From an uncultured delta proteobacterium (lineage in GTDB: Bacteria > Desulfobacterota > Binatia > UBA9968), in the NCBI GenBank assembly GCA_963745835.1, contig CAVUZH010000018.1, positions 256,001 through 320,000 of the forward strand: a stretch of 64,000 nucleotides of DNA. Direction: 5' to 3'. Of the stretch, positions 20,779 to 37,168 are shown in pieces. The position numbers and the translations under genes are program-made. Position 1 is the stretch's first letter; each line of letters begins with the position of its first letter. The notes under the pieces were generated by a model. It ran no database searches. It saw only the letters and a list, made by a program, of their open reading frames with translations, and had not been told where the DNA came from.

Positions 20779-20915
20779 TGCCAACCAAAGTTCGACGATC
20801 AATCGCGCCCATCAGGGAACATGCGCCGGACAAGCAAGACGGTCGGTTGCGTTAGGGCGGTCAACGGCACTCCTAAAAGCATTAACGCACTACCTTGCCT
20901 GCAGACCACGCCACG

Positions 20916-21365
20916 ATGGTCATCGAGTTCGCCCGCCGAGGCGCCGGCAGGGAATTTCCCACCGCAAATCTCAAGAAAATTGCCGCCGCAATCTTGACAG
21001 CCCTTGAACAGCGCGAGTCGGAACTCAGTGTGGCTCTGGTAGGCGACCGGGAAATGCGCCCGCTCAACGCCAAGTACCGCAAGGAAAACAAGACCACAGA
21101 CGTACTTTCATTTCCGGCTGATCCTGCGCTGCCTGCACAAGCGGGCTTGCTCGGGGATGTCATCATTTCCGTCGAGCAAGCCAAGCGTCAGGCCAGAGAC
21201 CGTAAAACATCGCTAGAAATAGAAATGGTCACTTTGTTGATTCACGGGGTTCTTCATCTTTTGGGCTATGATCACGAACGTTCGCAGCGACAGGCAAAGA
21301 TTATGGCGACCCTCGAGCAAAAAATCCTAAGTCACCTTTGTGAGCGCGGCCTAATCAAGCTATAA
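20916..21365 (+). CDS. ybeY: rRNA maturation RNase YbeY
   Basis: TDVLSFP, LGDVIIS, IHGVLHLLGYDH. Confidence 0.96.
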   Translation: MVIEFARRGAGREFPTANLKKIAAAILTALEQRESELSVALVGDREMRPLNAKYRKENKTTDVLSFPADPALPAQAGLLGDVIISVEQAKRQARDRKTSLEIEMVTLLIHGVLHLLGYDHERSQRQAKIMATLEQKILSHLCERGLIKL

Positions 21366-21374
21366 TTCAAAGTC

Positions 21375-21553
21375 GAGCAGGCTGTCTAAAAGCATAGGCT
21401 TGGTTGCGCTTGATTGCGCTCACCTAGAGTTCGTGTTTCGTGTTCGTGCTCGTTCGAAATTCTCGCTCACGTTTTTCACGGACAGGATCACGAGTATTCC
21501 GCCTCTGAGTCCTTTGAGCAGCCGGCAATCAGAGTTTTTCAGCAATCTGACAG
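21375..21553 (-). mobile_element. MITE-like element, copy 3, with a replaced or inserted interior
   Basis: Ends match copy 2 reversed (CAGGCTG..AAAAGCATAGGCTTGGTTGCGCT ... CGCCTCTGAG..TTTGAGCAGCC..AATCAGAGTTTTTCA); interior carries TTCGTG repeats. Confidence 0.6.
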
Positions 21554-21605
21554 CGCAGATGCAGAATTCCGGAATCAGTATTTAGCCGACCAAGGGCGAG
21601 GGCCG

Positions 21606-22716
21606 ATGTTAGAAGAAACCAAAGAGCAATTGGTGCAACTGGAACAAAGACTCGATAAGCTTCGGAGGCGTCTTTGACGTCGAAAGCAAACAGAAGCGTC
21701 TCGAGGAACTAACTCAAATCACTTCCCAGCCTGATTTCTGGAACGACGCCGACAAAGCTCAGACGATATTCAAAGAGCAGTCCTTTCTTAAAACTGTCAT
21801 AGAAAATTGGGAGAAACACCGAACGGGCCTCGAAGAGGCTCGTTTTTTTCTTGACCTTGCCGGCGAAGGGGAGGGCGACGAGGCTTTGCAAGAAGCGGCA
21901 GCCAAAGTCGCAGAAGTAACTCAGGGAATGGCTGAGACCGAGCTCGCGCAGATCCTTGGCGGTGCCGATGATCGGCGCAATGCGATCGTCACGCTTCATC
22001 CTGGCGCCGGCGGCACCGAGGCTCAGGATTGGGCGGAAATCTTGCTGCGCATGTATTTCCGCTGGGCCGATCGCCGTGGCTACCGCAAGGAAATTCTCGA
22101 ATACCAACCAGGCGAAGAAGCAGGTTTAAAGAGCGTCACCTTCAGTGTCGAAGGCGACTACGCCTACGGCTACCTGAAAGCGGAAGCCGGCATTCACCGG
22201 CTGGTGCGAATCTCCCCTTTTGACGCCAATTCGCGGCGTCATACTTCATTTGCTTCGGTGTTCGTCTATCCGGAAGTGGATGACACCATCAAAGTGGAAG
22301 TTGACGAAGCCGATTTGCGTGTCGACACTTACCGCTCCAGCGGCGCTGGCGGGCAGCACGTCAATAAAACCGATTCCGCCGTGCGCCTCACCCATCTCCC
22401 CACCGGCATTGTGGTCGCGTGTCAGAACGAACGCTCGCAGCACAAGAACCGGGCGATGGCCATGAAGATATTAAAATCTCGGCTTTACGAATTGGAGCTC
22501 GAGAAGCAAAAAGAAAAAATGGATACCTTGCACAAGACTAAAAAGGATAACGCCTGGGGCAGCCAGATCAGGTCCTATGTGCTGCATCCTTACCGGTTGG
22601 TTAAAGATCATCGCACCAATATCGAAATCGGCAACGCCGATGCGGTGCTCGACGGCGATATCGATCCATTTATTCAAGCCTACTTACTGCACGACAGTGA
22701 TTCGCCGGCCGCTTGA
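21606..22716 (+). CDS. prfB: Peptide chain release factor 2 with programmed +1 frameshift
   Basis: GGAGGCGT-CTT-TGA-C at 21664-21678; SPF and GGQ motifs in the +1 frame. Confidence 0.97.
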
Positions 22717-23173
22717 GTTCCCACTGATATCTAACGGTGACGAACGCCGAAGGCGGGTTATCACGGCAACCATCTGTTTACTTCGGCTGTAATTTTCTCT
22801 TCTTGAAGAACTGAATATGGCTCAGCGCGTCGGACCGGCGAAGTGAAAGCTGTTTACGAGAACACGCTCGCCGGAGTTCGACTATCGGTACTGTAGAGGA
22901 GAGGGAATAAGCTTCCTCCGAGCGTGAGAATCTTCGGCCTCTGTTCGCCGCTGCTTGAAGCTCACGTCGGTTTTGACATAGGTATTTATCGATCGGGTGC
23001 CGGGGTGGGCGGCGCGAAGAAGACTCATCGCGACGCAGATAGCCCGCACTGAGCACAACAATTCGGCTTTGAATAGCGGAACCAATGCACGGCATTTGCG
23101 AACTAGAAATCATCTTTGACAGAATAGCGAGGATTATTTTATGCGCGGAATAACTCCAAGACGGGAACAAGGC

Positions 23174-24046
23174 ATGGCCGATCCGGTCTTGGCCGAAATG
23201 GTTCATGCCACGGGGGCAACCGAGTCACGCCACTTTGCGGCGGTGAAACCGGTCATTCAAGCTTATCGCGCCAGTTGGGTTAAACTGGCGCCCTATCGTG
23301 ATGGTCCGGTGAATTCGCAGCGGGTGACAGTCAGCGATCCGGCGGCGATGACCGCGCAGATCAAGAGCAAGGCAAAGGAACTGGGCACCGACATGGTTGG
23401 CGTCTGCCGCTTGCAGCCGCATATGATCGATCTCGGCTCGGAGGTGGTCCATGAGTTCGTGATCGCCTGCTGCGTCGCGGAAGATTATGAAAAAGTTATT
23501 CACGGGCCGGATGCGGTCGAGGAAGAAGCGATGCGGACATACGCCAAGTGCACAGAGATCGCTACGGCGCTAGCCGCCTACATACGCCAGATCGGATATC
23601 CCGCGATCGCGCACCACAATGGCGCCAGCGAAGTTCAGGCGATTCCGATTTTCTACCAGGTGGGATTCGGCGAGCTCGGGCGCCATGGCAGTTTGATCAA
23701 CGAAGAATTCGGCGCAAGCTTTCGGCCGGGATTCGTGACCACCGACTTGCCGCTGGTGGAAGATCAGCCGCGCGAGTTTGGCGTTCAGGACTTCTGCATG
23801 CACTGCAATGTATGCCAGCGCAACTGTCCCGGCGATGCAATCCCCCAGGATCACGTGATGACGCATGGTATCAAGCGTTGGCTGATCGATCTAGAAAAAT
23901 GCTACCCATACTCCCGGCTGCGCGACGAGTATTGTCATCTGTGCGTCGATGTCTGCCCGTACATCGTGAAGTCGCATCCGGAAACCTATAAAACGTTCAT
24001 GAAAGAGCGCAAGCAAGTGGGCTACAAAACGCCGAAGACTTATTAA
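23174..24046 (+). CDS. Reductive dehalogenase/QueG-like cobalamin and 2x[4Fe-4S] protein
   Basis: AKELGTDMVG, GFGELGRHGSLINEEFG, VTTDLPL, CMHCNVCQRNCP, C..CHLCVDVCP. Confidence 0.82.
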   Translation: MADPVLAEMVHATGATESRHFAAVKPVIQAYRASWVKLAPYRDGPVNSQRVTVSDPAAMTAQIKSKAKELGTDMVGVCRLQPHMIDLGSEVVHEFVIACCVAEDYEKVIHGPDAVEEEAMRTYAKCTEIATALAAYIRQIGYPAIAHHNGASEVQAIPIFYQVGFGELGRHGSLINEEFGASFRPGFVTTDLPLVEDQPREFGVQDFCMHCNVCQRNCPGDAIPQDHVMTHGIKRWLIDLEKCYPYSRLRDEYCHLCVDVCPYIVKSHPETYKTFMKERKQVGYKTPKTY

Positions 24047-24367: not shown

Positions 24368-25180
24368 TTAACTTGGCCTGGATTTTTCTCTCGCGAGAGC
24401 CAGCAACTCATCCATGGGCATCTCGGACGCGAGGATGCAGATCACATCGCCCTCGCGGTGGAGAACGGCATTGATCCCCGCCCGCGAGAAGGCATAAAGA
24501 TTCATGTTCATATCCGGATCAAAAAACTTCGCTGCGTTGGCCGGAGCATCCGCTTCGGATCCGAGGAAGGTGTAGCACAACAGCGAACCTCCTTCGCCCT
24601 GATAGATCGCGACCAGGATCTTGCGTCCGTCAATTTCCCGGACGACGCCCGCAACCGGTCTCATATTCATCGCCGAGAGATCGTATCCCATGGGGTGGAA
24701 GCGTCCATCCACCGCTTGAGTCAGCCGTCTAACAATATCATCGCTGTTTGACGTGCGATCGAAAGGCAGTTTGCCCTGCCTGAACGAATCGTAAGTTTCG
24801 AAAGCAGCCAAGGCGACAGGCTGAGAGATCCGATTGGATAAATAGTAGGTCGGAAGAATCAGTAGCACCAGAAAAGCTAGCGCCAACCCGGCCTGGTAAA
24901 CAGGAGAGCGGTGCCATAGGTTTTCTAACCATCGTCGCGCCAATACTCTGTTCTCAGGAAAGATTCGCCGGTCCGTAAGGATCCTGCTGCGCAACAGCGC
25001 AGGCGCATGCATGCGCTCGCCGGTTTGGCGTATGTTTCGCTTCAGAGCAAGCTCATCTTCAAACGCCAGCCGGCAGCCGGAGCACTCATCCATGTGAGCT
25101 TTCAGTGACGATCGCTCTGCCTGATCCAGTTCTTGATCCACCAGCGCGGTAATCAGTTCTTGTGCTTCGTCGCAGTTCAT
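24368..25180 (-). CDS. Zinc-binding (zf-HC2) transmembrane anti-sigma factor
   Basis: MNCDEAQELITALVDQEL..HMDECSGC, one TM segment, periplasmic domain; coupled to the ECF gene. Confidence 0.9.
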   Translation of the reverse strand: MNCDEAQELITALVDQELDQAERSSLKAHMDECSGCRLAFEDELALKRNIRQTGERMHAPALLRSRILTDRRIFPENRVLARRWLENLWHRSPVYQAGLALAFLVLLILPTYYLSNRISQPVALAAFETYDSFRQGKLPFDRTSNSDDIVRRLTQAVDGRFHPMGYDLSAMNMRPVAGVVREIDGRKILVAIYQGEGGSLLCYTFLGSEADAPANAAKFFDPDMNMNLYAFSRAGINAVLHREGDVICILASEMPMDELLALAREKSRPS

Positions 25181-25181
25181 T

Positions 25182-25751
25182 TCACTTGAGTTTTTCTTGT
25201 TCCCCGACAACATACGCTCTCAGGAATTTTCGCATTAGTTTTCTTCCCCGAGAGAGCCGCGAGCGGACCGTGCCGATAGGGCATGACATTATCAGCGCAG
25301 CCTCTTCGTAGGAGAAATCGCCGACATCCACCAAAACAATCGGTGTGCGAAACTCCTCCGGGATTTTCTTCAGAACCGCGCTGATTTGATCGTCGAGTTC
25401 CCGGGTCAAAACGGTGCGCTCCGGTCCGGGATTCTGCGCTGCGAGACCCTCCCAATAGTCGGCTTGCGGCTCCGCTAATTCTTCTGTGGAGACCCATCGT
25501 TGCTTGCGGCGGGTATGATCGAAAAAAAAGTTGCGCAGGATCGTTGTCAGCCATGCTTTCATATTGCTTGCCGGCTCGAACTGTTCGTAAGCAGCAAGCG
25601 CGCGCGCAAACGTTTCCTGCACTAGATCCTCGGCGTCCGATTCGTTCTTTGTCAGAAAAAACGCCACCCGATACAAATGATCGAGGTGAACCATGGCCTC
25701 ACTTGCAACAGCATCCCGCTTGGCGCCTCCTGTTTTCCGGTCCCCGGACAC
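25182..25751 (-). CDS. ECF sigma factor (SigR/SigH-like)
   Basis: HLDHLYRVA, DAEDLVQETF, KAWLTTI, FSYEEAA..CPIGTVRSRLSRGR. Confidence 0.93.
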   Translation of the reverse strand: MSGDRKTGGAKRDAVASEAMVHLDHLYRVAFFLTKNESDAEDLVQETFARALAAYEQFEPASNMKAWLTTILRNFFFDHTRRKQRWVSTEELAEPQADYWEGLAAQNPGPERTVLTRELDDQISAVLKKIPEEFRTPIVLVDVGDFSYEEAALIMSCPIGTVRSRLSRGRKLMRKFLRAYVVGEQEKLK

Positions 25752-25896
25752 GCGGGCATTCTATAGATCAGTCACTGTCTAAACAACATAACGTTTTACC
25801 GGGTTTCGAGTTCCCGATGATGCTCGGACCGTGGCCGACGTCCGTCGCCACTTCAGTTACGTCTGGAGCTATTTCTTGTACACGGCGTTGTAAGTG

Positions 25897-25922
25897 GGAA
25901 CTTTTTGCTTCCTCGCCAGTTT
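25897..25922 (+). promoter_or_regulatory. Putative ECF promoter GGAAC-N17-GTTT
   Basis: GGAAC 25897-25901, 17-nt spacer, GTTT 25919-25922; upstream of the MXKDX/arsM operon. Confidence 0.6.
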
Positions 25923-25982
25923 CAACAGGTACGAAAGCTTCGATATCCGAAGCCGGTAAACAACCGAGGAGGGAGAATAGTC

Positions 25983-26220
25983 ATGAAAAATACACGAGAT
26001 TTGGGGTTAGCGTTGCTAAATAGCAAGCGCGCTGATCGGTGCACCGATTTCCGCGCAGGAGAAGGGTGGGACGAAGGATGAGAAGGGCATGACAAAGGAC
26101 GAGAAAGGGATGATGAAGGATGACAAGGACACGATGATGAAAGACAAAATGAAAGCCGAAAAGAAGGGTCAGGCCGGAAAGACAGATGATAAGATGAAGA
26201 TGAACGAGAAAAAGCAATAG
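25983..26220 (+). pseudogene. Secreted Met-rich MXKDX-repeat peptide, 1-nt frameshift in the signal peptide
   Basis: MKNTRDLGLALL / IASALIGAPISAQEKGGTKDEKGMTKDEKGMMKDDKDTMMKDKMK...; extra A at about 26018-26020. Confidence 0.75.
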
Positions 26221-26358
26221 CATCGGCTCTTGCTTTGCCGGTATCGGTTTCTGGACGCGGTGCGCGTCGGGCAACCGAGTCCAGGCACCGTCTTGCGTCC
26301 TACTCGGGAAGATGATTTTGTTTCAACCACCGTTTCTGTGCCGAACTGAGGGGACGAT

Positions 26359-27549
26359 ATGGAAGAGAAGAATGTTAGTGCAATCGACGGAACGAGCGAC
26401 AATGTTGAAGCCGCAGTGCTGCAGCGTTACGGCAACGCGGCGCAAGAGGTCGAAGCCTGTTTGTGCCTGCCGGTCAGCTACGACCAAGCTCTATTGAACG
26501 TCATCCCTGACGAGATCATCGAAAGAGACTACGGCTGCGGCGATCCCACCCGGCACGTCCGCCAAGGTGAGACCGTGCTCGATCTGGGCTCGGGCAGCGG
26601 CAAAGCCTGCTACATCATCGCTCAGATCGTCGGCGCTGAGGGCAAAGTCATTGGCGTGGATTTCAATCCGCCTATGCTCGATCTCGCGCGCAAATACCAA
26701 AAGTCGATCGGCGATCAGCTCGGTTATCATAATGTCGAGTTTCGCCGCGGTAGAATTCAGGATCTTAGAACTAATCTGGAGCTAATCGATCTATTCTTGC
26801 AGGAAAACCCGGTGCGATCGGTGGCGGATCTCGCGCGCTTGGAAAGCTTTCAGCACACGGTTCGTGATGAACAGCCTTTGATCGCCGATGAGTCCATCGA
26901 CGTGATCGTTTCCAATTGTGTCCTCAACCTGGTTCGGCCGAACGATAAGAAATCTCTGTTCGCCGAGATGTACCGCGTGCTTAAGCATCGCGGCAGAGTC
27001 GTGATTTCGGATATCGTCAGCGATGAGCCGGTGCCGGAACATCTGGCCAAAGATCCTGATCTATGGAGCGCGTGCGTTGCCGGCGCTTTTCTTGAAGATG
27101 AGTTTCTGCGCGCCTTCGAAGAAGCGAAGTTTTACGGCATTCACATCGAAGAGCTCCGCAGCGAGGCTTATCAGACCGTCGAAGGCATCGAGTTTCGCTC
27201 TATCACAGTGACTGCTTACAAGGGAAAAGAAGGTCCGTGCGACGAGCGGAACCAGGCAGTCGTTTACCGCGGCCCGTGGAAGCAAGTGGTCGATGACGAC
27301 GGCCACACGCTGGAGCGCGGCGCGCGCATCGCGGTTTGCGACAAGACGTTCAAGCTCTATTCCCAGCCACCGTATCAGGACCAGTTCATTCTGCTACCGC
27401 CGCGGCAAGAAGTTCCGCTCGATGAAGTCGGTCCATTCGATTGCTCGCGCGAACATAAGCGCCATCCGCGCGAGACCAAAGGCGTTGGGTACAAAGTTAC
27501 CAGCGCCGCCGCAAGCGCCAGCACGCCGGGCTCGGCGTGCTGTCCATAG
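26359..27549 (+). CDS. arsM: Arsenite S-adenosylmethionine methyltransferase
   Basis: CLCLP, DYGCGDP, VLDLGSGSG, SNCVLNL, WSACVAGA, C-terminal CC. Confidence 0.85.
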   Translation: MEEKNVSAIDGTSDNVEAAVLQRYGNAAQEVEACLCLPVSYDQALLNVIPDEIIERDYGCGDPTRHVRQGETVLDLGSGSGKACYIIAQIVGAEGKVIGVDFNPPMLDLARKYQKSIGDQLGYHNVEFRRGRIQDLRTNLELIDLFLQENPVRSVADLARLESFQHTVRDEQPLIADESIDVIVSNCVLNLVRPNDKKSLFAEMYRVLKHRGRVVISDIVSDEPVPEHLAKDPDLWSACVAGAFLEDEFLRAFEEAKFYGIHIEELRSEAYQTVEGIEFRSITVTAYKGKEGPCDERNQAVVYRGPWKQVVDDDGHTLERGARIAVCDKTFKLYSQPPYQDQFILLPPRQEVPLDEVGPFDCSREHKRHPRETKGVGYKVTSAAASASTPGSACCP

Positions 27550-27606
27550 AAGACAGGCAGGGAAGCAAGGAGAAGGAAGACAGGGAGACAACGCGAGCAT
27601 ATGATC

Positions 27607-27648
27607 TTACCTTCCTCTCCCACCACGGGAGAGGATCAAGGTGAGAGT
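27607..27648. repeat. REP-like palindrome
   Basis: CCTCTCCC-acca-C-GGGAGAGG core; a related, more degenerate copy at about 35721-35769. Confidence 0.5.
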
Positions 27649-27657
27649 GATCTTTTT

Positions 27658-28611
27658 ATGCAACCCTTTTCCCATAAGATCCATCCTAGGAACGGCTTGA
27701 GCCGTCGCGCCATCGACACCCTGCAGGTAAACCTGGGCCGTTACTGCAATCTCGCCTGCATTCATTGCCATGTCGAATCGGGTCCGACCCGCACAGAAAT
27801 GATGAACCGGGAAACGGTCGATGCCGTGCTGCGATTTCTCGCCAGCTCGAATATTTCGGCTCTCGATATCACTGGCGGCGCGCCGGAGCTAAACCCGAAT
27901 TTCGACTATCTTGTTGAATCCGCGGTCGGTCTGGGGCGACACGTCATGGATCGCTGCAACCTGACCGTGATCTTCGAGCCTGGAAAAGATTATCTTCCTG
28001 AGTTTTTCAAGCGCCATGGCGTGGAACTCATCTGTTCGCTGCCCTGCTATTCCGAAGAGAACGTCGATCGCCAGCGCGGCAAGGGTACCTTCGAGTTGAG
28101 TATCCGCGCATTGCAAATGCTCAACGCGATTGGTTACGGCAGGGACGCTAATTTAGTTCTGAATTTGGTCTACAATCCGGTGGGCCCGCACTTGCCGCCG
28201 GCCCAGGAAAAGCTCGAACAAGATTATAAAGAGATTCTTAACGAGCAGTTTGGCGTCGTCTTCAATCAGCTTTTCTGTCTCACCAATATGCCGATCACGC
28301 GTTACGCGACGCATCTTAAATTGCGCGGCGAGTACGACTCTTACATGAACCTCCTCGAGAGCAGCTTCAACCGGTCAACGCTCGAACAGGTGATGTGCCG
28401 CAATCTTATCAGCATAGGCTGGGAAGGCCTGGTATACGATTGCGATTTCAACCAGATGCTCGATCTGCCTCTGACCGACAATGATGGAAACCGGTTGAAC
28501 ATTGCGTCGCTGACGGTTGAGCAGGTTGCCTGCCGAAAAATTATCATTGGCAATCACTGCTACGCCTGTACGGCCGGAGCGGGCAGCAGTTGTGGCGGCA
28601 CGCTGGTTTAA
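27658..28611 (+). CDS. arsS: Arsenosugar biosynthesis radical SAM protein (Cys form)
   Basis: QVNLGRYCNLACIHCHV, DITGGAPELNP, YDCDFNQML, HCYACTAGAGSSCGG. Confidence 0.92.
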   Translation: MQPFSHKIHPRNGLSRRAIDTLQVNLGRYCNLACIHCHVESGPTRTEMMNRETVDAVLRFLASSNISALDITGGAPELNPNFDYLVESAVGLGRHVMDRCNLTVIFEPGKDYLPEFFKRHGVELICSLPCYSEENVDRQRGKGTFELSIRALQMLNAIGYGRDANLVLNLVYNPVGPHLPPAQEKLEQDYKEILNEQFGVVFNQLFCLTNMPITRYATHLKLRGEYDSYMNLLESSFNRSTLEQVMCRNLISIGWEGLVYDCDFNQMLDLPLTDNDGNRLNIASLTVEQVACRKIIIGNHCYACTAGAGSSCGGTLV

Positions 28612-28629
28612 AAGGGAAGGAAAGCGACG

Positions 28630-29658
28630 GTGAAGTCCATCCTAGTAGCATTTCTCGCCCTCGCTGTGCTCTTCGCCGGATGCGGCAAACGCACGGAGGA
28701 AAAGAGCGGCGGCGCCAAGACCGTTATTCAATATGACGCGATCCCTAACTACGCGAATTGGGGCGGCGTGACCGAAGCGTACTTCAAGAAAACCGGTGTA
28801 AGGGTGCCGCCGGACATGAAAGGTTCGAGCGCGTCCATGGCCGCCTTGGAAGCCGAAAAGAACAACCCGCAAGCGGACACGGTTTACTACTCGGGCGCGA
28901 TTGGTTATCAAGCCGCAAGCAAAGGGCTGCACCAACCCTACAAGCCTTCGGGATGGGAAAAAATTCCCGATAATCTTAAAGACCCGGACGGCTTGTGGTG
29001 GACCATTCATGCCGCTCACATCGCTTTGCTGGTCAATACTTCGGCGCTCAAGGGTAAGCCGATACCTCGTTCATTCGCCGATCTGCTCAGACCGGAATAC
29101 AAAGGGATGGTTGTCTATGACGATCCGCGCATTCACGGCACCGCTTTTACGTTCGTCTATGGCATCAATCAAGTGTTGGGTGGCGGTTCGGATCTGAGCA
29201 AAGGATTCGATTACTTAAAAAAGCTCCATCCCAATATTCTCAAGTACGCCAAGGAAAACAGTTACAATGATCTCTTGCGCGGCGAGGTGCCGATCTGGAT
29301 TAACGCCGACGGCAACGGCTTGAAGGCCAAGCATGTCGACAACGCGCCGATCGAAACCGTGATACCGGAGGAGGGCGCGATCACGATGCCGCTGGTCATG
29401 GCTCTGGTCAAAGGCGCGCCGCGGCCGGTAGAGGCAAAAAAATACTTGGATTGGCTTCTCGACGAAGAGGCACAGAAGCTTATGGCCGACGCGTTTTTTC
29501 GGCCCGTTATGAACGTCGATTTGCCCGCCGACCTCCAAGCCAAGTTTCTGCCGGCGCAGGCGTATGCCAACACCCTGGTGCCGCCTCTTGCCGAGATGGC
29601 GGCAAAGGCAGATGCCATCAAGAAGCGTTGGGAGGAGGAAGTCGAGAATGGAAGGTAA
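28630..29658 (+). CDS. ABC substrate-binding lipoprotein (Fe3+/phosphonate/thiamine class)
   Basis: Lipobox FAGC, EAEKNNPQAD, DLLRPEYKG. Confidence 0.88.
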   Translation: MKSILVAFLALAVLFAGCGKRTEEKSGGAKTVIQYDAIPNYANWGGVTEAYFKKTGVRVPPDMKGSSASMAALEAEKNNPQADTVYYSGAIGYQAASKGLHQPYKPSGWEKIPDNLKDPDGLWWTIHAAHIALLVNTSALKGKPIPRSFADLLRPEYKGMVVYDDPRIHGTAFTFVYGINQVLGGGSDLSKGFDYLKKLHPNILKYAKENSYNDLLRGEVPIWINADGNGLKAKHVDNAPIETVIPEEGAITMPLVMALVKGAPRPVEAKKYLDWLLDEEAQKLMADAFFRPVMNVDLPADLQAKFLPAQAYANTLVPPLAEMAAKADAIKKRWEEEVENGR

Positions 29659-29679
29659 CGTTCAACTTAAGCCGTTGCT

Positions 29680-30522
29680 ATGAAGCGGGTTCTTTTGCGA
29701 CCCGAGCTTCTGTGCCTGCCGCTGCTCGTCGCCTTTGCCGCTCTGCTGCTTTGGCCCTTGGCTTTACTCTTTTTTGAAAGCGTCGTTAGCGGTGGGAGCG
29801 GAGCCGGGTTTACCTTGCGGCGTTATCTCGACGTGGTAACGATCCCGCGATATCGCGCGGCATTTCTTTGGTCTGTCTGTTTAAGCCTTGCCGTCGCGGT
29901 GTTCTCGACGGTAGCCTGTCTCGCGCCGGCTTGGTTGTTCGTGCGCAAGGAGTTCGCTGGCAAGCGCTGGCTTCGCGGCGCCTTTGCTCTTCCCATGTCT
30001 TTTTCAGGAGTCATCGTTGGTTTCCTGATGATCATCATGCTCGGGCGGTCCGGTTTTATCCCCGAATTGGCGCAGCGCCTCACCGGCGTGCCCTTGTTTT
30101 CGGGCGTCGCCTATCAGATTTCCGGTTTGTTTCTAGCCTATCTTTATTTCGAGATCCCGCGTGCGACCTTGACCCTGGAATCGGCATTGCGCAAATTCGA
30201 CGTCCGGCTCGAGGCAGCGGCAAAATCCCTGGGGGCCAATCGTTGGCAGCGACTCGTCTGCGTGATCCTGCCGACCATCTGGCCGGCTTTGATATCGACC
30301 TTCGCCGTCACCTTTACCGTTTCACTCGGCTCGTTTGGCGCTGCGCTGATTTTATCCACTCGTCAGGTAAATCTTTTGCCGCTGGAGATTTTCACTCAAT
30401 ATCTCGCGGTCCCGTCGGATCGCCCGGCGGCGGCGGCGATGGCCGTGATGTTGACGGGAATAGCCCTGGGAGTTAATTACGGTTTTCGCTCGTGGGTGGA
30501 AAGAGAGATTCCCCGGCGATGA
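29680..30522 (+). CDS. ABC permease 1
   Basis: Six TM segments, EAAAKSLGA loop. Confidence 0.92.
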   Translation: MKRVLLRPELLCLPLLVAFAALLLWPLALLFFESVVSGGSGAGFTLRRYLDVVTIPRYRAAFLWSVCLSLAVAVFSTVACLAPAWLFVRKEFAGKRWLRGAFALPMSFSGVIVGFLMIIMLGRSGFIPELAQRLTGVPLFSGVAYQISGLFLAYLYFEIPRATLTLESALRKFDVRLEAAAKSLGANRWQRLVCVILPTIWPALISTFAVTFTVSLGSFGAALILSTRQVNLLPLEIFTQYLAVPSDRPAAAAMAVMLTGIALGVNYGFRSWVEREIPRR

Positions 30523-31344
30523 TCAAGTTCCGTCCACAATTCGAGTTCCTGCTGGTCTACACCGTCACTCTGGGGTTGCTTGCGCTCATCCTTGCTCCCA
30601 TGATCGTCGTTATTCTCGGTTCTTTTTTAAACATGGGGCTCCTCGGAATCACTAGCGACCAATGGTCCGCCGCGCGCCACCAGCTGGTCAGCTTGGACGC
30701 GTTTACATACCTGTTCAGCGTCTATTGGGAGTGGATGTTGTTTAGCATGGAATTGGCGCTGCATATCGGTGATCCTCTGTGTAGTCGTCGCTGTTCCGGC
30801 CGGTTATGCATTGGTTCAACATCCGTTTAGAGGCAGCCGTTTGATCGAAGAGCTCCTTCTCCTGCCTTTGTCGCTGCCCGGCATTGCCATGTCGATCGCT
30901 TTGATCGCCGCCTACAACACGGTTCGCGGCAGGTGGCTGGTCCTGGGCGGCCATTTTCTCTATACGATGCCTTTCATGGTTCGTGTCGTGACCGGAACAC
31001 TGCGCAGCTTCGATGTCACGCTTCTGGAAGCGGCGGCGCAAACTTTGGGCGCCGGTTTCTGGCAACGCATGTGGCATGTGATTCTGCCCCACCTGCGCCA
31101 TTCGCTGGTTCTGGGATCGCTGTTGGTTTTTGCCGTTTCATGGGGCGAATTCAACGTCAGCTACCTTTTGAATGCCGGCCACCCGCAGACCTTTCCAGCA
31201 GCGGTTTTCAACACCTATGCCAATGAAAGCTTTCAACGCTCAAGCGCGGCCACAGTGATTTTTCTCGCAGTCGTGATCCCCATCGTGATCGCCATCCAGT
31301 GGCTTGGCGGCAAATCTTCGGTGGATGTGGAGCAGGGCGCGTGA
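30519..31344 (+). pseudogene. ABC permease 2, frameshifted near 30762
   Basis: ...FSMELAL / ISVILCVVVAVPAGYAL...; EAAAQTLGA loop. Confidence 0.8.
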
Positions 31345-32402
31345 GCACTCGAATCGAAACCAGGAAACTGTGCAAACGCTATGGTTCGATCGTCGCGGTG
31401 GAGGAGTTCTCTCATATTTTCGCGCCGGGAAGAGTGACCACGATTCTCGGGCCGAGCGGATCGGGAAAAAGCACCACATTGGAGATGCTCGCCGGTCTGG
31501 TCGATCCGGATGCCGGGCGGGTTTACTGCAACGGCGATGACATCACGGAGCTGCCCGCCGATCGCAGAAATTTTGGCATGGTGTTTCAAAGCTACGCGCT
31601 CTTTCCGCATATGACGGTGCTGGAAAATGTCGAGTTCGGATTGCGTGTGCGCCGGATTGAGCTGAGGGAACGGCGCCATCGCGCTGCCCGAGTCCTGGAA
31701 ATGCTTCAGATCGGGCGGTTGGCCGATCGGCGCATACGGCAAATTTCCGGCGGCGAGCAGCAGCGCGTCGCGGTGGCGCGGGCCTTGGCGTTCAATCCGC
31801 AGGTTTTGTTGATGGATGAACCGCTTTCGGCGCTCGACGCCAGATTGCGCGAAACTCTCCGCACCGAGCTCTTTCGCTTGCTCGCCGACCTCGGCGTGAC
31901 AACGATCTATGTCACGCACGATCAGATCGAAGCCATGAGCCTGGGTTATGAACTGATCATTATGAATGCCGGGCGCATCGAACAAGCCGGGCACCCGTTT
32001 GAGGTTTACTCGCAACCAGCCAATACATTTGTCGCTAATTTTTTCGGTTCGACCAACCTGCTCGAGGGCGAGTGCATCGAGCACGACGGCGCGCGCCGGC
32101 TGCGGCTGCCGTTTGCCTGGATGGATGTTTCCGGCGAGACACCCCTCGGGCAGTGCTGGGCGGTCATTCGTCCTGAAGACATGGAGATCACCGACGGCGG
32201 CGGCGAACATTTTTTTGCCGAGTTCGAGTCGTCGGTATTTTTGGGAAACCACGTTCGATTGTTTTTGCGTGCCGGGGAGCAGCGCATTATCGTCGATGTG
32301 CCGAACGACGTCTTGCGCCATTCACGGCGCAATTGGCCGGTGCAGATCAAAACCTCGAAGATCTGCGTTCTCGCCAAGGAAAACCCAACGCCATGGAACT
32401 GA
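31341..32402 (+). CDS. ABC ATPase (PotA/FbpC type)
   Basis: GPSGSGKST, ISGGEQQRVA, LLMDEP, YVTHDQ. Confidence 0.95.
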   Translation: MSTRIETRKLCKRYGSIVAVEEFSHIFAPGRVTTILGPSGSGKSTTLEMLAGLVDPDAGRVYCNGDDITELPADRRNFGMVFQSYALFPHMTVLENVEFGLRVRRIELRERRHRAARVLEMLQIGRLADRRIRQISGGEQQRVAVARALAFNPQVLLMDEPLSALDARLRETLRTELFRLLADLGVTTIYVTHDQIEAMSLGYELIIMNAGRIEQAGHPFEVYSQPANTFVANFFGSTNLLEGECIEHDGARRLRLPFAWMDVSGETPLGQCWAVIRPEDMEITDGGGEHFFAEFESSVFLGNHVRLFLRAGEQRIIVDVPNDVLRHSRRNWPVQIKTSKICVLAKENPTPWN

Positions 32403-32528
32403 CGCTTGCCCGGCGTCGTGTTTGATCGTTGACCGCCTCACTGCCCAACGTATGAATCTAAACTCCACGTCGAGTCATCTAAATAAAGCTCAACAGACGC
32501 GCGGCCGTCTCGTGACGTTAGGTCCGGT

Positions 32529-34778
32529 ATGAAAATCGGTAAAATTCTGCTGGCTACTCTGCTTATTGCGGGCGCAATCATCGCAATCTTTCTCCTGCCT
32601 GTGCGCCAGTGGTTCGTGCATTTCGAAAGCTATGTGCAATCGCTCGGCGCCATCGCGCCGGTGGTGGTGGTGCTAGCCTACATCCTGTCCACGGTGCTGT
32701 TTATTCCGGGAAGCGCGCTGACCATCGGTTCGGGAACTCTCTTTGGCTTAGCCACGGGCTTTGCCGTGGTATTCCTGGGCGCCAACTTGGGCGCGCTGTG
32801 TTCATTTTTATTGGCCCGAACCTTGTTGCGAGATAAAGTCGCGAACTGGGCGGCGGCTAATCCAAAATTCCGCTCCCTCGATCAGGCGATCGGCAAGCAG
32901 GGCTTCAAGATGGTCCTGCTCACGCGTCTGAGCCCGGTGTTTCCCTTCGTCCTATTGAATTACTTTCTCGGGCTCACTGCGGTGCGCACCGCTCCCTATG
33001 TTCTGGCCAACCTCATCGGCATGCTGCCGGCAACTTTCCTTTTTGTTTACATCGGCGCGGCGGCGCGGGATGCTCTTGCCGGTCAGACGGACGCTTCGGC
33101 CGGCTTCTACCAGCAAATTTTGAAAGTCGTCGGATTGCTGGCGACAGTCGCGGTCGTGGTTGTCGTCACGCGAATCGCGCGCAAAGCGTTGCGCGAAGCC
33201 GAGCAGGAACAGGAAGGCGATACGGCTCGAAAGCCGCATCTCGATGCCAGCCACCAGCCAGCATCTTTTGAAAAGATGATGCTCGTCGATGACGAGCACG
33301 ACCGGCGGCTCATAGAAAACTGTCATCCACCCCGATGGGTCAACCCCGCACCTGCCGCGAAGTATAATCTAGTCGTCATTGGCGCGGGCACTGCCGGACT
33401 GGTCAGCGCCGCCGGCGCCGCGGGACTTGGCGCCAAGGTCGCTTTGATCGAGCGCAATCTCCTGGGCGGAGATTGTCTGAACGTCGGTTGCGTGCCGTCG
33501 AAAGGGACGATCCGGGCGGCGCGCGCGGCGCATGATGCGCGCGATGCGTCGAGATTCGGCGTGGAGATTGCCTGTGAGCCGCAGGTTGTATTTGCCGCCG
33601 CCATGGAGCGCATGCGCAAGCTTCGCGCCGCCATCAGCGATCACGATTCCGCCGAGCGCTTCCGCAAGCTCGGCGTGGATGTATTCATCGGCAGCGCTCG
33701 CTTTGCCGGGACGTCATCGGTAGACGTGGACGGCAAGCGCCTTCATTTTAACCGCGCCGTCATCGCCAGCGGCGCCAGGGCGGCGGAACTGCCGGTTCCA
33801 GGGCTTGTGGAAGCCGGTTATCTTACTAATGAAACTGTTTTCACGTTGACGGAATTGCCGAGGCGAATTGTCGTCATCGGCGCCGGCCCGATCGGTTGCG
33901 AATTGGCGCAGGCATTCGCCCGCTTCGGTAGCGAGGCGACACTGCTGACCGACGGCGCCGAGATATTGCCCAGAGAAGATCGCGACGCCGCGCGGATCGT
34001 ACGCAAGCGGATGGAAGAGGACGGTGTCGGTATCGTTACAGGAGCGAGGATTCAGCGCGCCGCCAAAAATGGCAATGAAAAGATCCTCATTGCTACCATC
34101 GAGGAGGTGACAACCGAACTCCGTTGCGACGCCATCCTGGTTGCGGTCGGCCGCACACCCAATCTGGAGGGACTCGATCTGGAAGCAGCCGGAATAAGCT
34201 ACACCGCGCGAGGAGTCGAAGTCGATGCCCGGCTGCGCACTTCGAATCCGCGCGTATTCGCCGCCGGCGATATCTGCTCGCGCTTCAAGTTCACTCATGC
34301 CGCCGACGCCATGGCGCGTATCGTCATAGCGAATGCGTTATTTTTGGCACGGCGCAAAGTGACCGATCTTACCATGCCGTGGTGCACATACACCGATCCC
34401 GAGATCGCCCATGTTGGTTACTACGAGAAGGATGCCAAAGCGGCGGGTTTCGATGTCGCGACGATTACCGAGTCGCTGGACCGTGTGGACCGCGCGATTC
34501 TTGACGGTGAGGAGGATGGTTTCGCGCGGGTTCACTACGACAAGAAAACCGGCAAAATTTTGGGCGGCACCATCGTCGCTCGCCATGCCGGCGAAATGAT
34601 CGGCGAATTGACCTTGGCCCTTGTGGCAAAACAAAGCGTCGGAGTTTTGTCCTCGACCATTCATTCGTATCCGACTCAGGCCGAGGCGTTGCGCAAGATC
34701 GGCGATGCCTACATGCGCGCCAAATTGACTCCGAGAGTCAAAAAGATTTTCGAGACATGGCTGGCGTGGCGGAGATGA
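32529..34778 (+). CDS. TVP38/DedA (VTT) membrane domain fused to a MerA/LpdA-like flavoprotein disulfide reductase
   Basis: RLSPVFPF..LNY DedA motif; GAGTAG, GGDCLNVGCVPSK, GAGPIGCE, HSYPTQAE. Confidence 0.9.
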   Translation: MKIGKILLATLLIAGAIIAIFLLPVRQWFVHFESYVQSLGAIAPVVVVLAYILSTVLFIPGSALTIGSGTLFGLATGFAVVFLGANLGALCSFLLARTLLRDKVANWAAANPKFRSLDQAIGKQGFKMVLLTRLSPVFPFVLLNYFLGLTAVRTAPYVLANLIGMLPATFLFVYIGAAARDALAGQTDASAGFYQQILKVVGLLATVAVVVVVTRIARKALREAEQEQEGDTARKPHLDASHQPASFEKMMLVDDEHDRRLIENCHPPRWVNPAPAAKYNLVVIGAGTAGLVSAAGAAGLGAKVALIERNLLGGDCLNVGCVPSKGTIRAARAAHDARDASRFGVEIACEPQVVFAAAMERMRKLRAAISDHDSAERFRKLGVDVFIGSARFAGTSSVDVDGKRLHFNRAVIASGARAAELPVPGLVEAGYLTNETVFTLTELPRRIVVIGAGPIGCELAQAFARFGSEATLLTDGAEILPREDRDAARIVRKRMEEDGVGIVTGARIQRAAKNGNEKILIATIEEVTTELRCDAILVAVGRTPNLEGLDLEAAGISYTARGVEVDARLRTSNPRVFAAGDICSRFKFTHAADAMARIVIANALFLARRKVTDLTMPWCTYTDPEIAHVGYYEKDAKAAGFDVATITESLDRVDRAILDGEEDGFARVHYDKKTGKILGGTIVARHAGEMIGELTLALVAKQSVGVLSSTIHSYPTQAEALRKIGDAYMRAKLTPRVKKIFETWLAWRR

Positions 34779-34785
34779 AGGCCAT

Positions 34786-35631
34786 ATGAAAGTTTTTGCA
34801 GAGGGTCTGTTGCGGTTTCAATCTAAACTCGGTGTTTTCGCGCTCCTGGCAATCTTCGGCGCGCCTCAGGCCGACCTCTGGCCGAAGTGGCAAAAGCACG
34901 ATCCCGCCAGTGCGCAGAAGATCGACCACAGCGCTTGGGATAAATGGCTCAAGAAATATCTCGTGGCGCCGCATCCTTCGGGCGTCAATCGAGTGCGTTA
35001 CGGCTCGGTGGCGCCCGAGGATCGAAAGGCGCTAAAGAGCTATCTGGAAGATCTCCAAAGCTTGCCGATTTCCGCATATAATGAAGCGGAGCAAAAGGCG
35101 TACTGGATCAATCTCTACAACGCACTGACGGTGGAGGTGATTCTGTCCCATTATCCGGTTGAATCCATCAGGAGCATCGGCATCTCTCCCGGATTGTTCA
35201 GCCGGGGACCCTGGGATGCCAAACTAGCAACCATCGAGAGAGAAAAGCTTTCCCTTAACGACATCGAGCATCGCATACTGCGTCCGATCTGGAAGGATGC
35301 GCGAGTGCACTATGCGGTCAATTGCGCTAGTCTCGGTTGCCCAAATCTCCAGCTCGTGGCCTATACCGGTGAAAATACGGAAGCGGTGCTTGAAAAAGGC
35401 GCCGGCGAGTATATCAACCACCCGAGGGGCGTCGCCATTAAAAACGGCAAGCTCCAAGTCTCCAGCATCTACGACTGGTTCAAGGATGATTTCGGCGCCA
35501 GCCGCGATCGGCTATTGGAACACTGGCTGAAATATGCAGACGGAAATTTGGCCGGCGCACTCAAGAGCTACAAAGGCAGCCTGGCTTACGGATATGATTG
35601 GAGTCTCAACGACGCGGAGGTTAAACCCTAA
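34786..35631 (+). CDS. DUF547 protein
   Basis: AYWINLYNA, LNDIEHRILR, VHYAVNCASLGCP. Confidence 0.92.
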   Translation: MKVFAEGLLRFQSKLGVFALLAIFGAPQADLWPKWQKHDPASAQKIDHSAWDKWLKKYLVAPHPSGVNRVRYGSVAPEDRKALKSYLEDLQSLPISAYNEAEQKAYWINLYNALTVEVILSHYPVESIRSIGISPGLFSRGPWDAKLATIEREKLSLNDIEHRILRPIWKDARVHYAVNCASLGCPNLQLVAYTGENTEAVLEKGAGEYINHPRGVAIKNGKLQVSSIYDWFKDDFGASRDRLLEHWLKYADGNLAGALKSYKGSLAYGYDWSLNDAEVKP

Positions 35632-35802
35632 CCAATGCGGAGCCAGACGTTAGAGAACGCAGCAGAGCCGCAATCAAAGGAAATGCAACCACCAGCCTTG
35701 TCATCACGAAGGTCTCGGATCCCCCCACCTCTTTCCTCCTCCGCGTCACGGGCAGGATGAAAGAGGGAGAAGTTTCGAATCGCATAGGAACTAGCCCTTG
35801 AG

Positions 35803-36480
35803 ATGGACATTTCCGTCGTCATTCCTGTCTTAAACGAAGAAAAGACCATCGCTGCAAATTTAACTGCATTGATGCCGTTGCGGCCGCACCAAGTAATCGT
35901 CGTTGATGGCTGTAGTAGAGACCGCACTCGCGAGATCAGCGCGCAAATGGGTGCCGTGGTCGTTACCGGAGCGCCGGGCCGCGCACGCCAGATGAACTGC
36001 GGCGCTGGACAAGCCACCGGCGATCTTCTGCTGTTTTTACATGCGGACACTCGTTTACCGCCCGGGGCTTTCGATGACATTGTTGCGGCTTTACAAGACC
36101 GCCGTTATCTGGGCGGTCGTTTCGATGTCGATCTGGACGGCGATCACTGGCTGTTGAAAGTGATCGGCGCCATGATCAACCAGCGCTCGCGTATTACCAA
36201 AGTAGCCACCGGCGATCAGGCGATTTTCGTTCGGCGCGATGTGTTTGCCCGTATGGGCGGTTTTCCGGATATTCCGTTGATGGAAGATATTGCCTTTTGT
36301 CGCGCGCTGAAACGGCTGGGCAGGATCGCCTGCTTGCGCAGCAAGGTCCTCACTTCCGCGCGCCGCTGGGAAACCGAAGGGGTATGGCGAACCGTCATTA
36401 AAATGTGGACTTTGAAGCTCCTCTACTTTGCCGGCGTCTCGCCCGTTAAATTGAAGCGTTTTTATGCCGACACCCGGTAA
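35803..36480 (+). CDS. GT2 glycosyltransferase (TIGR04283 type)
   Basis: ISVVIPVLNE, GRARQMN, LFLHADT, GDQAIFVRR, PLMEDI, TSARRW. Confidence 0.92.
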   Translation: MDISVVIPVLNEEKTIAANLTALMPLRPHQVIVVDGCSRDRTREISAQMGAVVVTGAPGRARQMNCGAGQATGDLLLFLHADTRLPPGAFDDIVAALQDRRYLGGRFDVDLDGDHWLLKVIGAMINQRSRITKVATGDQAIFVRRDVFARMGGFPDIPLMEDIAFCRALKRLGRIACLRSKVLTSARRWETEGVWRTVIKMWTLKLLYFAGVSPVKLKRFYADTR

Positions 36481-37168
36481 CGCACTGGCCGTCATGGCGA
36501 AAGCGCCGATACCGGGCACGGTAAAAACAAGGCTGGCGCCACCACTGACGCAAGAGCAAGCGGCCGAGTTGTACCATGCGTTGTTGTTGGATCAACTACA
36601 ACATCTGAATTCGCTCGAAGCCGCCGATTTGTACGTGGCCTTTACGCCGAGCGCCGCGATGCCGCTAATTGCGAGCATTGCGCCGGCAGGCTACCGCTGT
36701 TTCGCCCAATGCGGCGGCGATTTGGGCGAGCGCATGAACGAAGTCTTTGCCGAGCTCTGGCGGCGTGGTCATGGCAGTTTGATTGTGATCGGCAGCGACC
36801 TGCCGCCGGTGCCGCTGGATACGTTTCGTTTGGCCTTCGCGCAATTATCGGCCGACGGGAAACGGGTCGTGTTAGGGCCGAGCCGCGACGGCGGTTATTA
36901 CCTGATCGGCATGAATCAGCCGGTGCCTGAGATGTTTTCCGGCATGACCTGGAGCGATGAGCACGTCTTAGAGGCGACGACCGATAGGTTGACGCAGCTC
37001 GGTATCGATTTCGGATTGCTGCCTGAGTGGTTCGACGTCGACACGGTCGAGGACCTCGACAGCTTGCGGGCGATCAGCGATCTCAGTGTGCGCGATTCCA
37101 TGCAAAGAACTCTCGCTAGTCTTCAGCGGATCGACAGCATCGGCTGCTCATCCGGATCCGTTTGCTAA
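36464..37168 (+). CDS. TIGR04282/DUF2064 transferase
   Basis: MAKAPIPGTVKTRL, DLGERM, IGSDLP, VLGPSRDGGYYLIG, DVDTVEDL. Confidence 0.92.
   Translation: MPTPGNALAVMAKAPIPGTVKTRLAPPLTQEQAAELYHALLLDQLQHLNSLEAADLYVAFTPSAAMPLIASIAPAGYRCFAQCGGDLGERMNEVFAELWRRGHGSLIVIGSDLPPVPLDTFRLAFAQLSADGKRVVLGPSRDGGYYLIGMNQPVPEMFSGMTWSDEHVLEATTDRLTQLGIDFGLLPEWFDVDTVEDLDSLRAISDLSVRDSMQRTLASLQRIDSIGCSSGSVC

Follow-up and report, generated by a model that had tools for sequence, protein, structure and literature searches.

For bacterial arsM-arsS gene clusters, a preprint reports that arsS is co-transcribed with arsM and takes the first committed step of arsenosugar synthesis, and that cyanobacterial ars clusters can carry a periplasmic phosphate-binding protein (bioRxiv 10.1101/2022.09.23.509062). 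ArsS is portrayed, in a second preprint, as an enzyme of radical cleavage of the adenosyl C-S bond of S-adenosylmethionine (SAM; bioRxiv 10.1101/2024.02.01.577332), and a review links arsenite oxidation with phosphate metabolism (PMC7533571). Among transporters of phosphorus compounds, AfuABC is presented as a hexose/heptose-phosphate transporter (PMC4546632), and a pyridoxal-5-phosphate (PLP) system is described as well (PMC8427247). Two questions posed by bacterial arsenosugars are why they are made and which genes precede and follow ArsM and ArsS in their synthesis. Here, we analyze a stretch of 64,000 nucleotides, hereafter the window (positions 256,001 to 320,000 of contig CAVUZH010000018.1, assembly GCA_963745835.1), from an uncultured delta proteobacterium of the GTDB lineage UBA9968, whose genome comprises 7.28 Mb in 25 contigs at 97.1% completeness and 9.3% contamination. 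The window holds an arsenosugar-type arsM-arsS operon into which four genes of an ATP-binding cassette (ABC) importer, headed by a lipoprotein substrate-binding protein (SBP), are inserted.

The locus resembles the Synechocystis-type arsM-arsS pathway in that its ArsS, TIGR04283, and TIGR04282 proteins exceed the cut-offs of their models and an ArsM-like methyltransferase gene lies directly upstream of arsS. Unlike that pathway, it has an SBP-dependent ABC importer between arsS and the gene of a reductase fusion, a PiT permease takes the importer's position in its relatives, and an extracytoplasmic function (ECF) sigma factor with its anti-sigma factor, accompanied by matching promoters, is encoded divergently.

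Gene calls rest on a listing of open reading frames (ORFs) and on profile searches with NCBIfam and Pfam, whose scores we quote in bits against the cut-off of the model. All ten genes from arsM to the TIGR04282 gene (26359-37168) are present on the plus strand, as the preliminary description of this DNA had listed them, and follow each other with short gaps or overlaps of 51, 18, 21, -4 (ATGA), about -4 (GTGA), 126, 7, 171, and -17 nt (Table 1). The GTGA overlap between permease 2 and the ATPase presumes an ATPase start at 31341; a GTG at this position, overlapping the permease-2 stop, is the likely start codon. The SBP gene begins with a GTG at 28630, behind a purine-rich ribosome-binding site and, exactly as stated before, 18 nt after the arsS stop codon (28609-28611).

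ArsS, identified by TIGR04167, carries the CxxxCxxC motif as CNLACIHC at residue 49, and both the TIGR04283 and the TIGR04282 partner, each above cut-off, are encoded in the same cluster. The reductase fusion combines VTT_dom (91.7 bits), Pyr_redox_2 (213.6 bits), and Pyr_redox_dim (96.8 bits) with a CLNVGC motif at residue 316. ArsM, which adjoins ArsS, reaches 353 bits against a cut-off of 500 for NF040538, 194.5 against 263 for NF008823, and 131 against 400 for NF038099; it is nearer the 'arsinothricin ArsM' model (353 bits) than that of the cyanobacterial arsenosugar ArsM (131 bits), and falls below both cut-offs. It has cysteines at 34/36, 60, 187, and 248, which would be the four positions conserved in ArsM. 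These profile matches assign the cluster to the known arsenosugar-type arsM-arsS kind with its usual partners.

The importer had been described as embedded in this operon, which holds. The cassette (28611-32570, 3.96 kb) has no counterpart in the same-genus locus L177, where 187 bp are found instead; the window aligns with L177 at 88% identity over 25768-28610 and at 95% over 32571-36463. Judged from this alignment, the ABC cassette is a clean insertion relative to the same-genus genome, placed exactly between arsS and the reductase gene. A comparison with the same-genus genome G077 gives 88% DNA identity on the arsM-arsS side (84% for the ArsS protein) and 95% on the reductase-DUF547-TIGR04283 side. 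The arsM-arsS side may have been exchanged together with the insertion.

At the family level, matches to ArsS (E <= 1e-60) occur in 41 of 70 other genomes and in 20 of 23 genera; the 41 include the unpublished genomes G070 and G093, without which the count is 39 of 68. With these two left out, 38 arsS loci were compared together with the locus of G020, a genome of another genus, all scored with the window proteins. In nearly all of the 38, genes for the reductase fusion, TIGR04283, and TIGR04282 come after arsM-arsS. The gene next to arsS encodes a 374-aa PiT/PHO4 permease (PF01384, 214 bits) in 18 of them (within L176-L212), and the remaining 20 have neither this permease nor the ABC cassette there. 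The permease likewise follows arsS in four of the six public arsS loci nearest to the window's. L086:10977-12101 is an example of this gene, and one Nitrospirae locus (L102) has it at 36% identity. A single PHO4 gene lies elsewhere in the window's genome, on contig C3. The only other family genome with the ABC cassette after arsS is G020, with the order arsM-arsS-SBP-permease-permease-ATPase-metallophosphoesterase-reductase-DUF547-TIGR04283-TIGR04282.

In the window, permease 2 is split by a +1 frameshift near 30761-30763. We examined Logan contigs from four runs of four studies (X1, X5, X6, X11), of which X1 gave almost no cover of the stretch and none at this site. The contigs of X5, X6, and X11, from three studies, have one base fewer at 30761 or 30763. 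The frameshift is therefore either an assembly error or private to the window's genome. Minus one base, permease 2 becomes a 274-aa ORF without stops that is 75% identical over its full length to the intact G020 orthologue, and the operon then encodes a lipoprotein SBP, two BPD_transp_1 permeases, and an ABC ATPase, that is, a type-I SBP-dependent importer. The arsS-SBP junction is bridged by X5 record 18, X6 record 25, and X11 records 9 and 10, the ATPase-reductase junction by X5 record 22 and X6 record 31. Since independent contigs span both cassette junctions, the gene order is real and not an assembly chimera. At least half of the sampled words of 28400-32700 were found in each of 18 DNA runs from seven soil/rhizosphere metagenome studies; two RNA runs contain just 0.05-0.09 of the words.

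These data also bear on the explanation that the cassette merely landed here by horizontal transfer, as a neutral or recently hitch-hiking insertion with no functional tie to arsenic chemistry. The 187-bp site of the same-genus relative, the rarity of the cassette in the order (one of 100 other genomes), the loss of a partner phosphoesterase from the window, and the frameshifted copy of permease 2 would all suit such an event. On the other hand, the frameshift is absent from the contigs of three other studies, and the four genes are otherwise intact and tightly spaced, with gaps of 18 and 21 nt and ATGA and GTGA overlaps. The stretch, moreover, is present in all those DNA runs of seven studies, and the arsS-SBP junction recurs in G020 and in Verrucomicrobiota whose ArsS is 47-52% identical to the window's. 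We consider a neutral insertion improbable.

The SBP itself belongs to a distinct clade. A survey of GTDB, with one genome per species, yielded 39 loci with an SBP 56-74% identical to the window's; the next homologues, from Synergistota, Thermotogota, Pasteurellaceae, and others, reach at most 36%. The clade is made up of Verrucomicrobiota (mostly Chthoniobacterales), Acidobacteriota (Thermoanaerobaculia), one Geobacteraceae, and a few others, and 38 or more of its 39 SBPs agree at 116 alignment columns. Neighbours were counted by tblastn with defined queries, at E <= 1e-10 for the window proteins and within the available flanks. ArsS was found near the SBP in seven clade loci (L007-L011, L014, and L043, all Verrucomicrobiota), as opposed to none of 41 distant loci; G020 and the window are two further arsS-linked loci beyond the 39. 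When queries drawn from the clade loci were used along with those of the window, a gene for ArsM, ArsS, TIGR04282-like, TIGR04283, or DUF547 proteins was found near the SBP in 19 of 39 loci and again in 0 of 41 distant ones. The preliminary description had proposed to count how often this SBP clade neighbours arsS: the link is real, but a minority one (7/39), and seen from the arsS side it is rare (none of the 80 nearest arsS loci, see below).

Individual loci illustrate the association. L009 and L010 share the window's order arsM-arsS-SBP-permease-permease-ATPase, with ArsS 48-49% and SBP 67-68% identical to the window's. Directly before the SBP, L017 encodes an arsenite methyltransferase (NF008823, 351 bits against 263) and a TIGR04282-like protein (85 bits against 134). 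A radical-SAM-ArsM fusion follows the cassette in L038 (L038:14002-16287), a metallophosphoesterase and ArsM share a single ORF in L007 (L007:8884-10920), and a radical SAM-metallophosphoesterase fusion occurs in L017 (L017:13742-15358) and six other Acidobacteriota loci. The fusion proteins of these kinds of loci are candidate uncharacterised arsenic enzymes. As far as these gene neighbourhoods tell, members of at least three phyla have genes for arsenic methylation and radical SAM proteins beside an SBP of this clade. In a quick tree, the window, G020, the Geobacteraceae locus, and L038 stand at the clade base, followed by the arsS-linked Verrucomicrobiota; Acidobacteriota with the porin described below form one nested clade with 99% support in the Shimodaira-Hasegawa-like approximate likelihood ratio test (SH-aLRT); its root is a midpoint on a long branch, which does not establish the direction of change.

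The clade has further recurrent neighbours. In 17 of 39 loci, the cassette adjoins a metallophosphoesterase gene, and in 18 (Acidobacteriota) a phosphate-selective porin O/P is encoded directly upstream. Eight loci have a second radical SAM protein, in many cases as a fusion with the phosphoesterase. The underlying Pfam tally of flanking ORFs left out 13 of 138, ten of them longer than 830 aa and three already without a match. No homologue of the metallophosphoesterase, the porin, or the second radical SAM protein was found in the window's genome, and a search for a metallophosphoesterase remnant was negative both in the 126-nt gap after the ATPase gene and genome-wide.

What the importer may carry can be narrowed down by its relatives. 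The best NCBIfam matches of the SBP are the 2-aminoethylphosphonate (2-AEP) binders PhnS/PhnS2, at scores far below the cut-offs (123.6 against 392.75 for TIGR03261, 113.8 against 310, and 104.9 against 395; the ATPase reaches 317.6 against 457.7), which do not make the system a PhnS/PhnT transporter. The nearest PDB sequences are 5t1p (an unnamed SBP), 8x1a, 4r72-75, 6wce, and 4r6y; according to their entries, 6wce binds pyridoxal-5-phosphate, and 2-AEP is the putative ligand of 4r6y. The entries 4r72-75, which bear the title 'Fe3+ transport system', are presumably AfuA. By these similarities, the SBP appears to belong to the AfuA/P5PA/PhnS group, whose proteins bind organophosphates and phosphonates, and taken together the comparison suggests a family that recognises a phosphoryl or phosphonyl group. 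The window SBP shares the fold family of AfuABC, P5PA, and PhnS/PhnSTUV, and the cassette their type-I importer operon logic. It differs from them by PDB matches of only about 54-104 bits and about 30-35% identity to the nearest genomic homologues, by the sharp identity gap and long branch that set its clade apart, and by clade neighbours that include arsM, arsS, and radical SAM genes beside the metallophosphoesterase and the phosphate-selective porin.

The Pfam assignment to SBP_bac_6, together with matches to models and PDB entries named after Fe3+ or thiamine binding, could also indicate a classical substrate of that family, so that the importer would take up ferric iron or thiamine, for example to supply the Fe-S radical SAM enzyme. 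The thiamine model, however, reaches 54 bits against a cut-off of 93. The clade neighbours are a phosphate-like anion porin and a phosphoesterase, and AfuA, the presumed protein of 4r72-75, is described as a binder of sugar-phosphates and not of iron (PMC4546632). An iron or thiamine importer is thus very improbable.

Both the phosphate-selective porin and the PiT permease in the equivalent slot point to a small phosphate-like oxyanion as the substrate. In arsenic chemistry, arsenate corresponds to phosphate and methylarsonate to methylphosphonate. We infer from this analogy that the importer may accept the arsenic compounds as well, and import of a phosphate-like or arsenic oxyanion is plausible from the genes involved. 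A site for As(III) of the thiol kind was considered for the SBP and rejected: such a site is unlikely because there is no conserved cysteine pair, and the single common cysteine column has Ala in the window. Phosphate-type transporters adjoin arsenic genes here as they do where pst, phn, or PiT genes stand beside ars or aio genes. In contrast to such islands, the window's transporter lies inside a biosynthetic arsM-arsS operon and not in a resistance or oxidation island, and it is neither of the PstS nor of the PhnD type.

The same partners allow a different reading, in which the cassette is a phosphorus-sparing module: it would import an organophosphate or phosphonate, hydrolysed in other loci by the partner metallophosphoesterase, and would have been recruited to arsenic operons since arsenate stress mimics or causes phosphate shortage, supplying phosphorus and not arsenic. 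This agrees with the ligands of the nearest solved SBP relatives (sugar-phosphates, PLP, or 2-AEP), with the 17 metallophosphoesterase and 18 porin loci, and with a PiT family transporter in the equivalent slot. As far as genomic context goes, metallophosphoesterase and phosphate-selective porin would fit phosphorus scavenging as well as arsenic uptake. It is countered by the window cassette itself, which has no phosphoesterase, none being found genome-wide either, and by the fusion of a phosphoesterase to ArsM in L007 and of radical-SAM partners to phosphoesterase or ArsM elsewhere, which point to a role of the phosphoesterase inside the arsenic pathway. We regard phosphorus supply as possible, though somewhat unlikely. 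The preliminary description had suggested deliberate uptake or salvage of arsenic species or of a sugar/phosphate acceptor, not detoxification: the importer does lie inside the arsM-arsS cluster, but the present data fit a phosphorus substrate as well as an arsenic one.

With respect to detoxification, neither Acr3 (TIGR00832) nor ArsB (PF02040) was matched in the window or in the whole genome, whose 97.1% completeness leaves the absence unproven. No ArsC exceeded its cut-off in the window or genome, the models reaching 71 bits (cut-off 174) and 33.5 bits (106). The earlier statement that acr3 and arsC are missing from the window holds, and can be extended to the genome assembly. By these searches, the organism may have no canonical arsenite efflux route.

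The operon had further been called ECF-controlled. The sigma and anti-sigma genes lie on the minus strand and are divergent from the arsM operon, not co-oriented with it; support for the claim comes from the promoter motifs. The 608-bp divergent region contains two GGAAC-N16/17-GTT motifs, one toward the sigma gene and one toward arsM, and in seven of seven loci with the sigma factor beside arsM both motifs are present in the right orientation. Sigma orthologues (59-84% identity) are encoded divergently upstream of arsM in 6 of the 38 family loci, and the pair stands beside arsM in none of the SBP-centred loci. The strict form GGAACTTTTT-N11-14-GTT has only two copies in the 7.28-Mb genome; the second (C3:622887-622911, minus strand) was dropped, as only small unannotated ORFs lie downstream. 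Of 32 family loci, 14 have the relaxed form GGAACTTTT-N11-16-GTT in the 800 nt that precede arsM, namely all six with an adjacent sigma gene and 8 of 26 without (G020 included). Over the whole window, GGAAC-N16/17-GTT is not enriched (6 copies against 3.4 expected, a number reached by 11 of 100 shuffles), so that only the placement and conservation of the motifs carry weight.

The anti-sigma factor has the HxxxCxxC signature of zf-HC2 proteins as H40-x3-C44-x2-C47, one predicted transmembrane helix (residues 102-127, approximately), and a C-terminal domain, some 150 aa long, that belongs to no family; against the RsrA model it scores 46 bits, below the cut-off. At the sequence level, an ECF sigma factor, a zinc-type (ZAS) anti-sigma factor, and motifs on both sides of the divergent region thus come together. 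The sigma-proximal motif is presumed to be autoregulatory, and an ECF-dependent promoter upstream of arsM has good in-silico support. We infer that the ZAS anti-sigma factor may sense As(III). Between this promoter and arsM lies a small ORF with a signal-like start, MxKDx-like repeats, and a frame change near 26018, which is in two pieces in L177, too; it could be a gene in decay, encode a leader peptide, or not be a gene. In the same-genus locus L180, the space between the ECF promoter and arsM is occupied instead by a TlpA-like thioredoxin-fold gene (WCPPC), and in L212 by one for an unrelated small secreted protein.

We propose that an ancestral arsenosugar-type operon, under ECF control, has been joined by a horizontally acquired importer for a small pentavalent oxyanion, and put the probability of this reading at about one half. 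The ancestral operon would consist of arsM, arsS, the DedA-reductase fusion, DUF547, TIGR04283, and TIGR04282, transcribed from an ECF-sigma-dependent promoter whose sigma factor would be held by the zinc/thiol (ZAS) membrane anti-sigma factor, and the four-gene type-I ABC importer would have been gained horizontally in the window's lineage, between arsS and the reductase gene. Envelope or thiol stress, e.g., by As(III), would free the sigma factor and switch on transcription of the operon. The importer would then take in a small pentavalent oxyanion, be it arsenate, one of its methylated forms, or a compound resembling phosph(on)ate. A reduction step, with the CxxxxC flavoprotein fusion as a candidate enzyme, would be followed by methylation of the arsenic by ArsM and attachment of a 5'-deoxyadenosyl group by ArsS, and the product might be worked up by TIGR04282, TIGR04283, and DUF547.

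Several observations weigh against this proposal. Among 100 other sampled genomes of the order, a close SBP occurs only in G020 (82% identity), all others staying at or below 35%, and the same-genus genome does without the cassette. The window cassette has lost the metallophosphoesterase found in 17 of 39 clade loci and in G020. In the clade, 20 of 39 loci have no gene of the arsenosugar set in their available flanks, 11 of the 19 positive loci owe their status to ArsM-like or TIGR04282-like matches without ArsS, and the four TIGR04282-like matches scored all lie at 85-91 bits against the cut-off of 134. Conversely, the SBP is found in none of the 80 public arsS loci nearest to the window's, which have TIGR04283 (41), TIGR04282 (37), ArsM (20), the reductase fusion (19), and DUF547 (11); these loci partly overlap the family loci, and the two sets are not independent. 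Counts from kin genomes are not independent in general. ArsM remains under every curated ArsM cut-off. The solved SBP homologues bind phosphorus compounds and not arsenic ones, the position shared by PiT and ABC transporters is no proof of a shared substrate, and substrate and transport role of the importer are predictions from sequence. Finally, the ECF link is drawn from motifs, with a promoter 437 nt from arsM and a doubtful small ORF between them.

Table 1. Features of the arsM-arsS locus and its divergent regulatory genes, with positions in the window.
Feature	Position	Strand	Profile match or remark
ArsM-like arsenite S-adenosylmethionine methyltransferase	26359-27549	+	best NCBIfam matches all ArsM models
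ArsS, radical SAM enzyme	27601-28611	+	TIGR04167 444.1 bits (cut-off 300)
Lipoprotein SBP of the inserted ABC importer	28630-29658	+	SBP_bac_6 123 bits; lipobox LFAGC
ABC permease 1	29680-30522	+	sulfate/molybdate/2-AEP permease models 81-109 bits, all below cut-off
ABC permease 2	30519-31344	+	BPD_transp_1 48 bits on C-terminal piece; frame split in window
ABC ATPase	31341-32402 (ORF from 31299)	+	PhnT2 317.6 bits, PotA 301 bits, both below cut-off
VTT/DedA-TVP38 + class-I pyridine-nucleotide-disulphide oxidoreductase fusion	32529-34778	+	NF004991 762 bits (cut-off 620)
DUF547 protein	34786-35631	+	PF04784 87.7 bits (cut-off 27)
TIGR04283 GT2-type glycosyltransferase	35803-36480	+	272.5 bits (cut-off 182)
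TIGR04282 (DUF2064, CofC-like) protein	36464-37168	+	197.1 bits (cut-off 134); DUF2064 103 bits
ECF-type sigma-70 factor	25182-25751	-	TIGR02937 sigma70-ECF 88.8 bits (cut-off 42.9)
zf-HC2 membrane anti-sigma factor, ZAS type	24368-25213	-	Pfam zf-HC2 38.6 bits (cut-off 22.2)
ECF-type promoter motif GGAAC-N16-CGTT	25790-25814	-	38 nt upstream of sigma gene
ECF-type promoter motif GGAACTTTTT-N12-GTT	25897-25921	+	points at arsM, 437 nt upstream
Small Met/Lys/Asp-rich repeat ORF, gene status uncertain	25983-26220	+	broken by frame change

Upstream of the sigma pair, the window encodes ybeY (20895-21365), release factor 2 (prfB, 21414-22716, plus strand) as two ORFs, and a reductive-dehalogenase-family/4Fe-4S protein (23141-24046, plus strand; TIGR02486 119 bits, below cut-off). 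Two prfB ORFs are expected from the well-known programmed +1 frameshift of this gene. The reductive-dehalogenase-family protein has a counterpart of 87% identity in L086 and is absent between prfB and arsM in G020. Rfam gave no match at gathering threshold over the whole window, hence no known riboswitch lies in the 608-bp leader. A scan for sigma-70 promoters and intrinsic terminators was uninformative: it returned 3 promoter-like sites, where 6.8 were expected, and 27 terminator-like sites, where 18 +/- 5 were.

Our literature search, which did not cover most subscription journals, found no paper on an importer inside an arsM-arsS operon, on PiT after arsS, or on ECF control, and none joining arsenolipid, phosphate limitation, and ArsS. 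What appears to be new here is the inserted importer of a distinct, arsenic-associated SBP clade, the positional equivalence of the ABC cassette and the PiT permease, the fused accessory enzymes in related loci, and the conserved ECF promoter of the arsM operon. The importer within the operon, and an unrelated anion permease in the same slot of its relatives, make the question of deliberate arsenic uptake testable by a binding assay and heterologous expression. The analysis further provides an SBP clade whose ligand can be tested, accessory enzyme candidates (the ArsM-fused phosphoesterase and the radical SAM fusions), and the prediction of an ECF regulon together with its promoter. Soil and rhizosphere metagenomes of several studies contain the stretch, and arsenic speciation matters in such habitats, e.g., for rice.

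A bolder version of our proposal, which we hold only tentatively and think unlikely, would make the SBP clade the binding protein of a dedicated arsenic-oxyanion acquisition system of porin, importer, and phosphoesterase-like enzyme. Together with the PiT permease found in its stead in relatives, this system would feed arsenic on purpose into ArsM/radical-SAM pathways that build envelope arsenosugars or arsenolipids under envelope-stress (ECF) control. The absence of Acr3 and ArsB from the genome would fit such a use of arsenic. If true, there would be soil bacteria that do not just get rid of arsenic but collect it for use as a building block.

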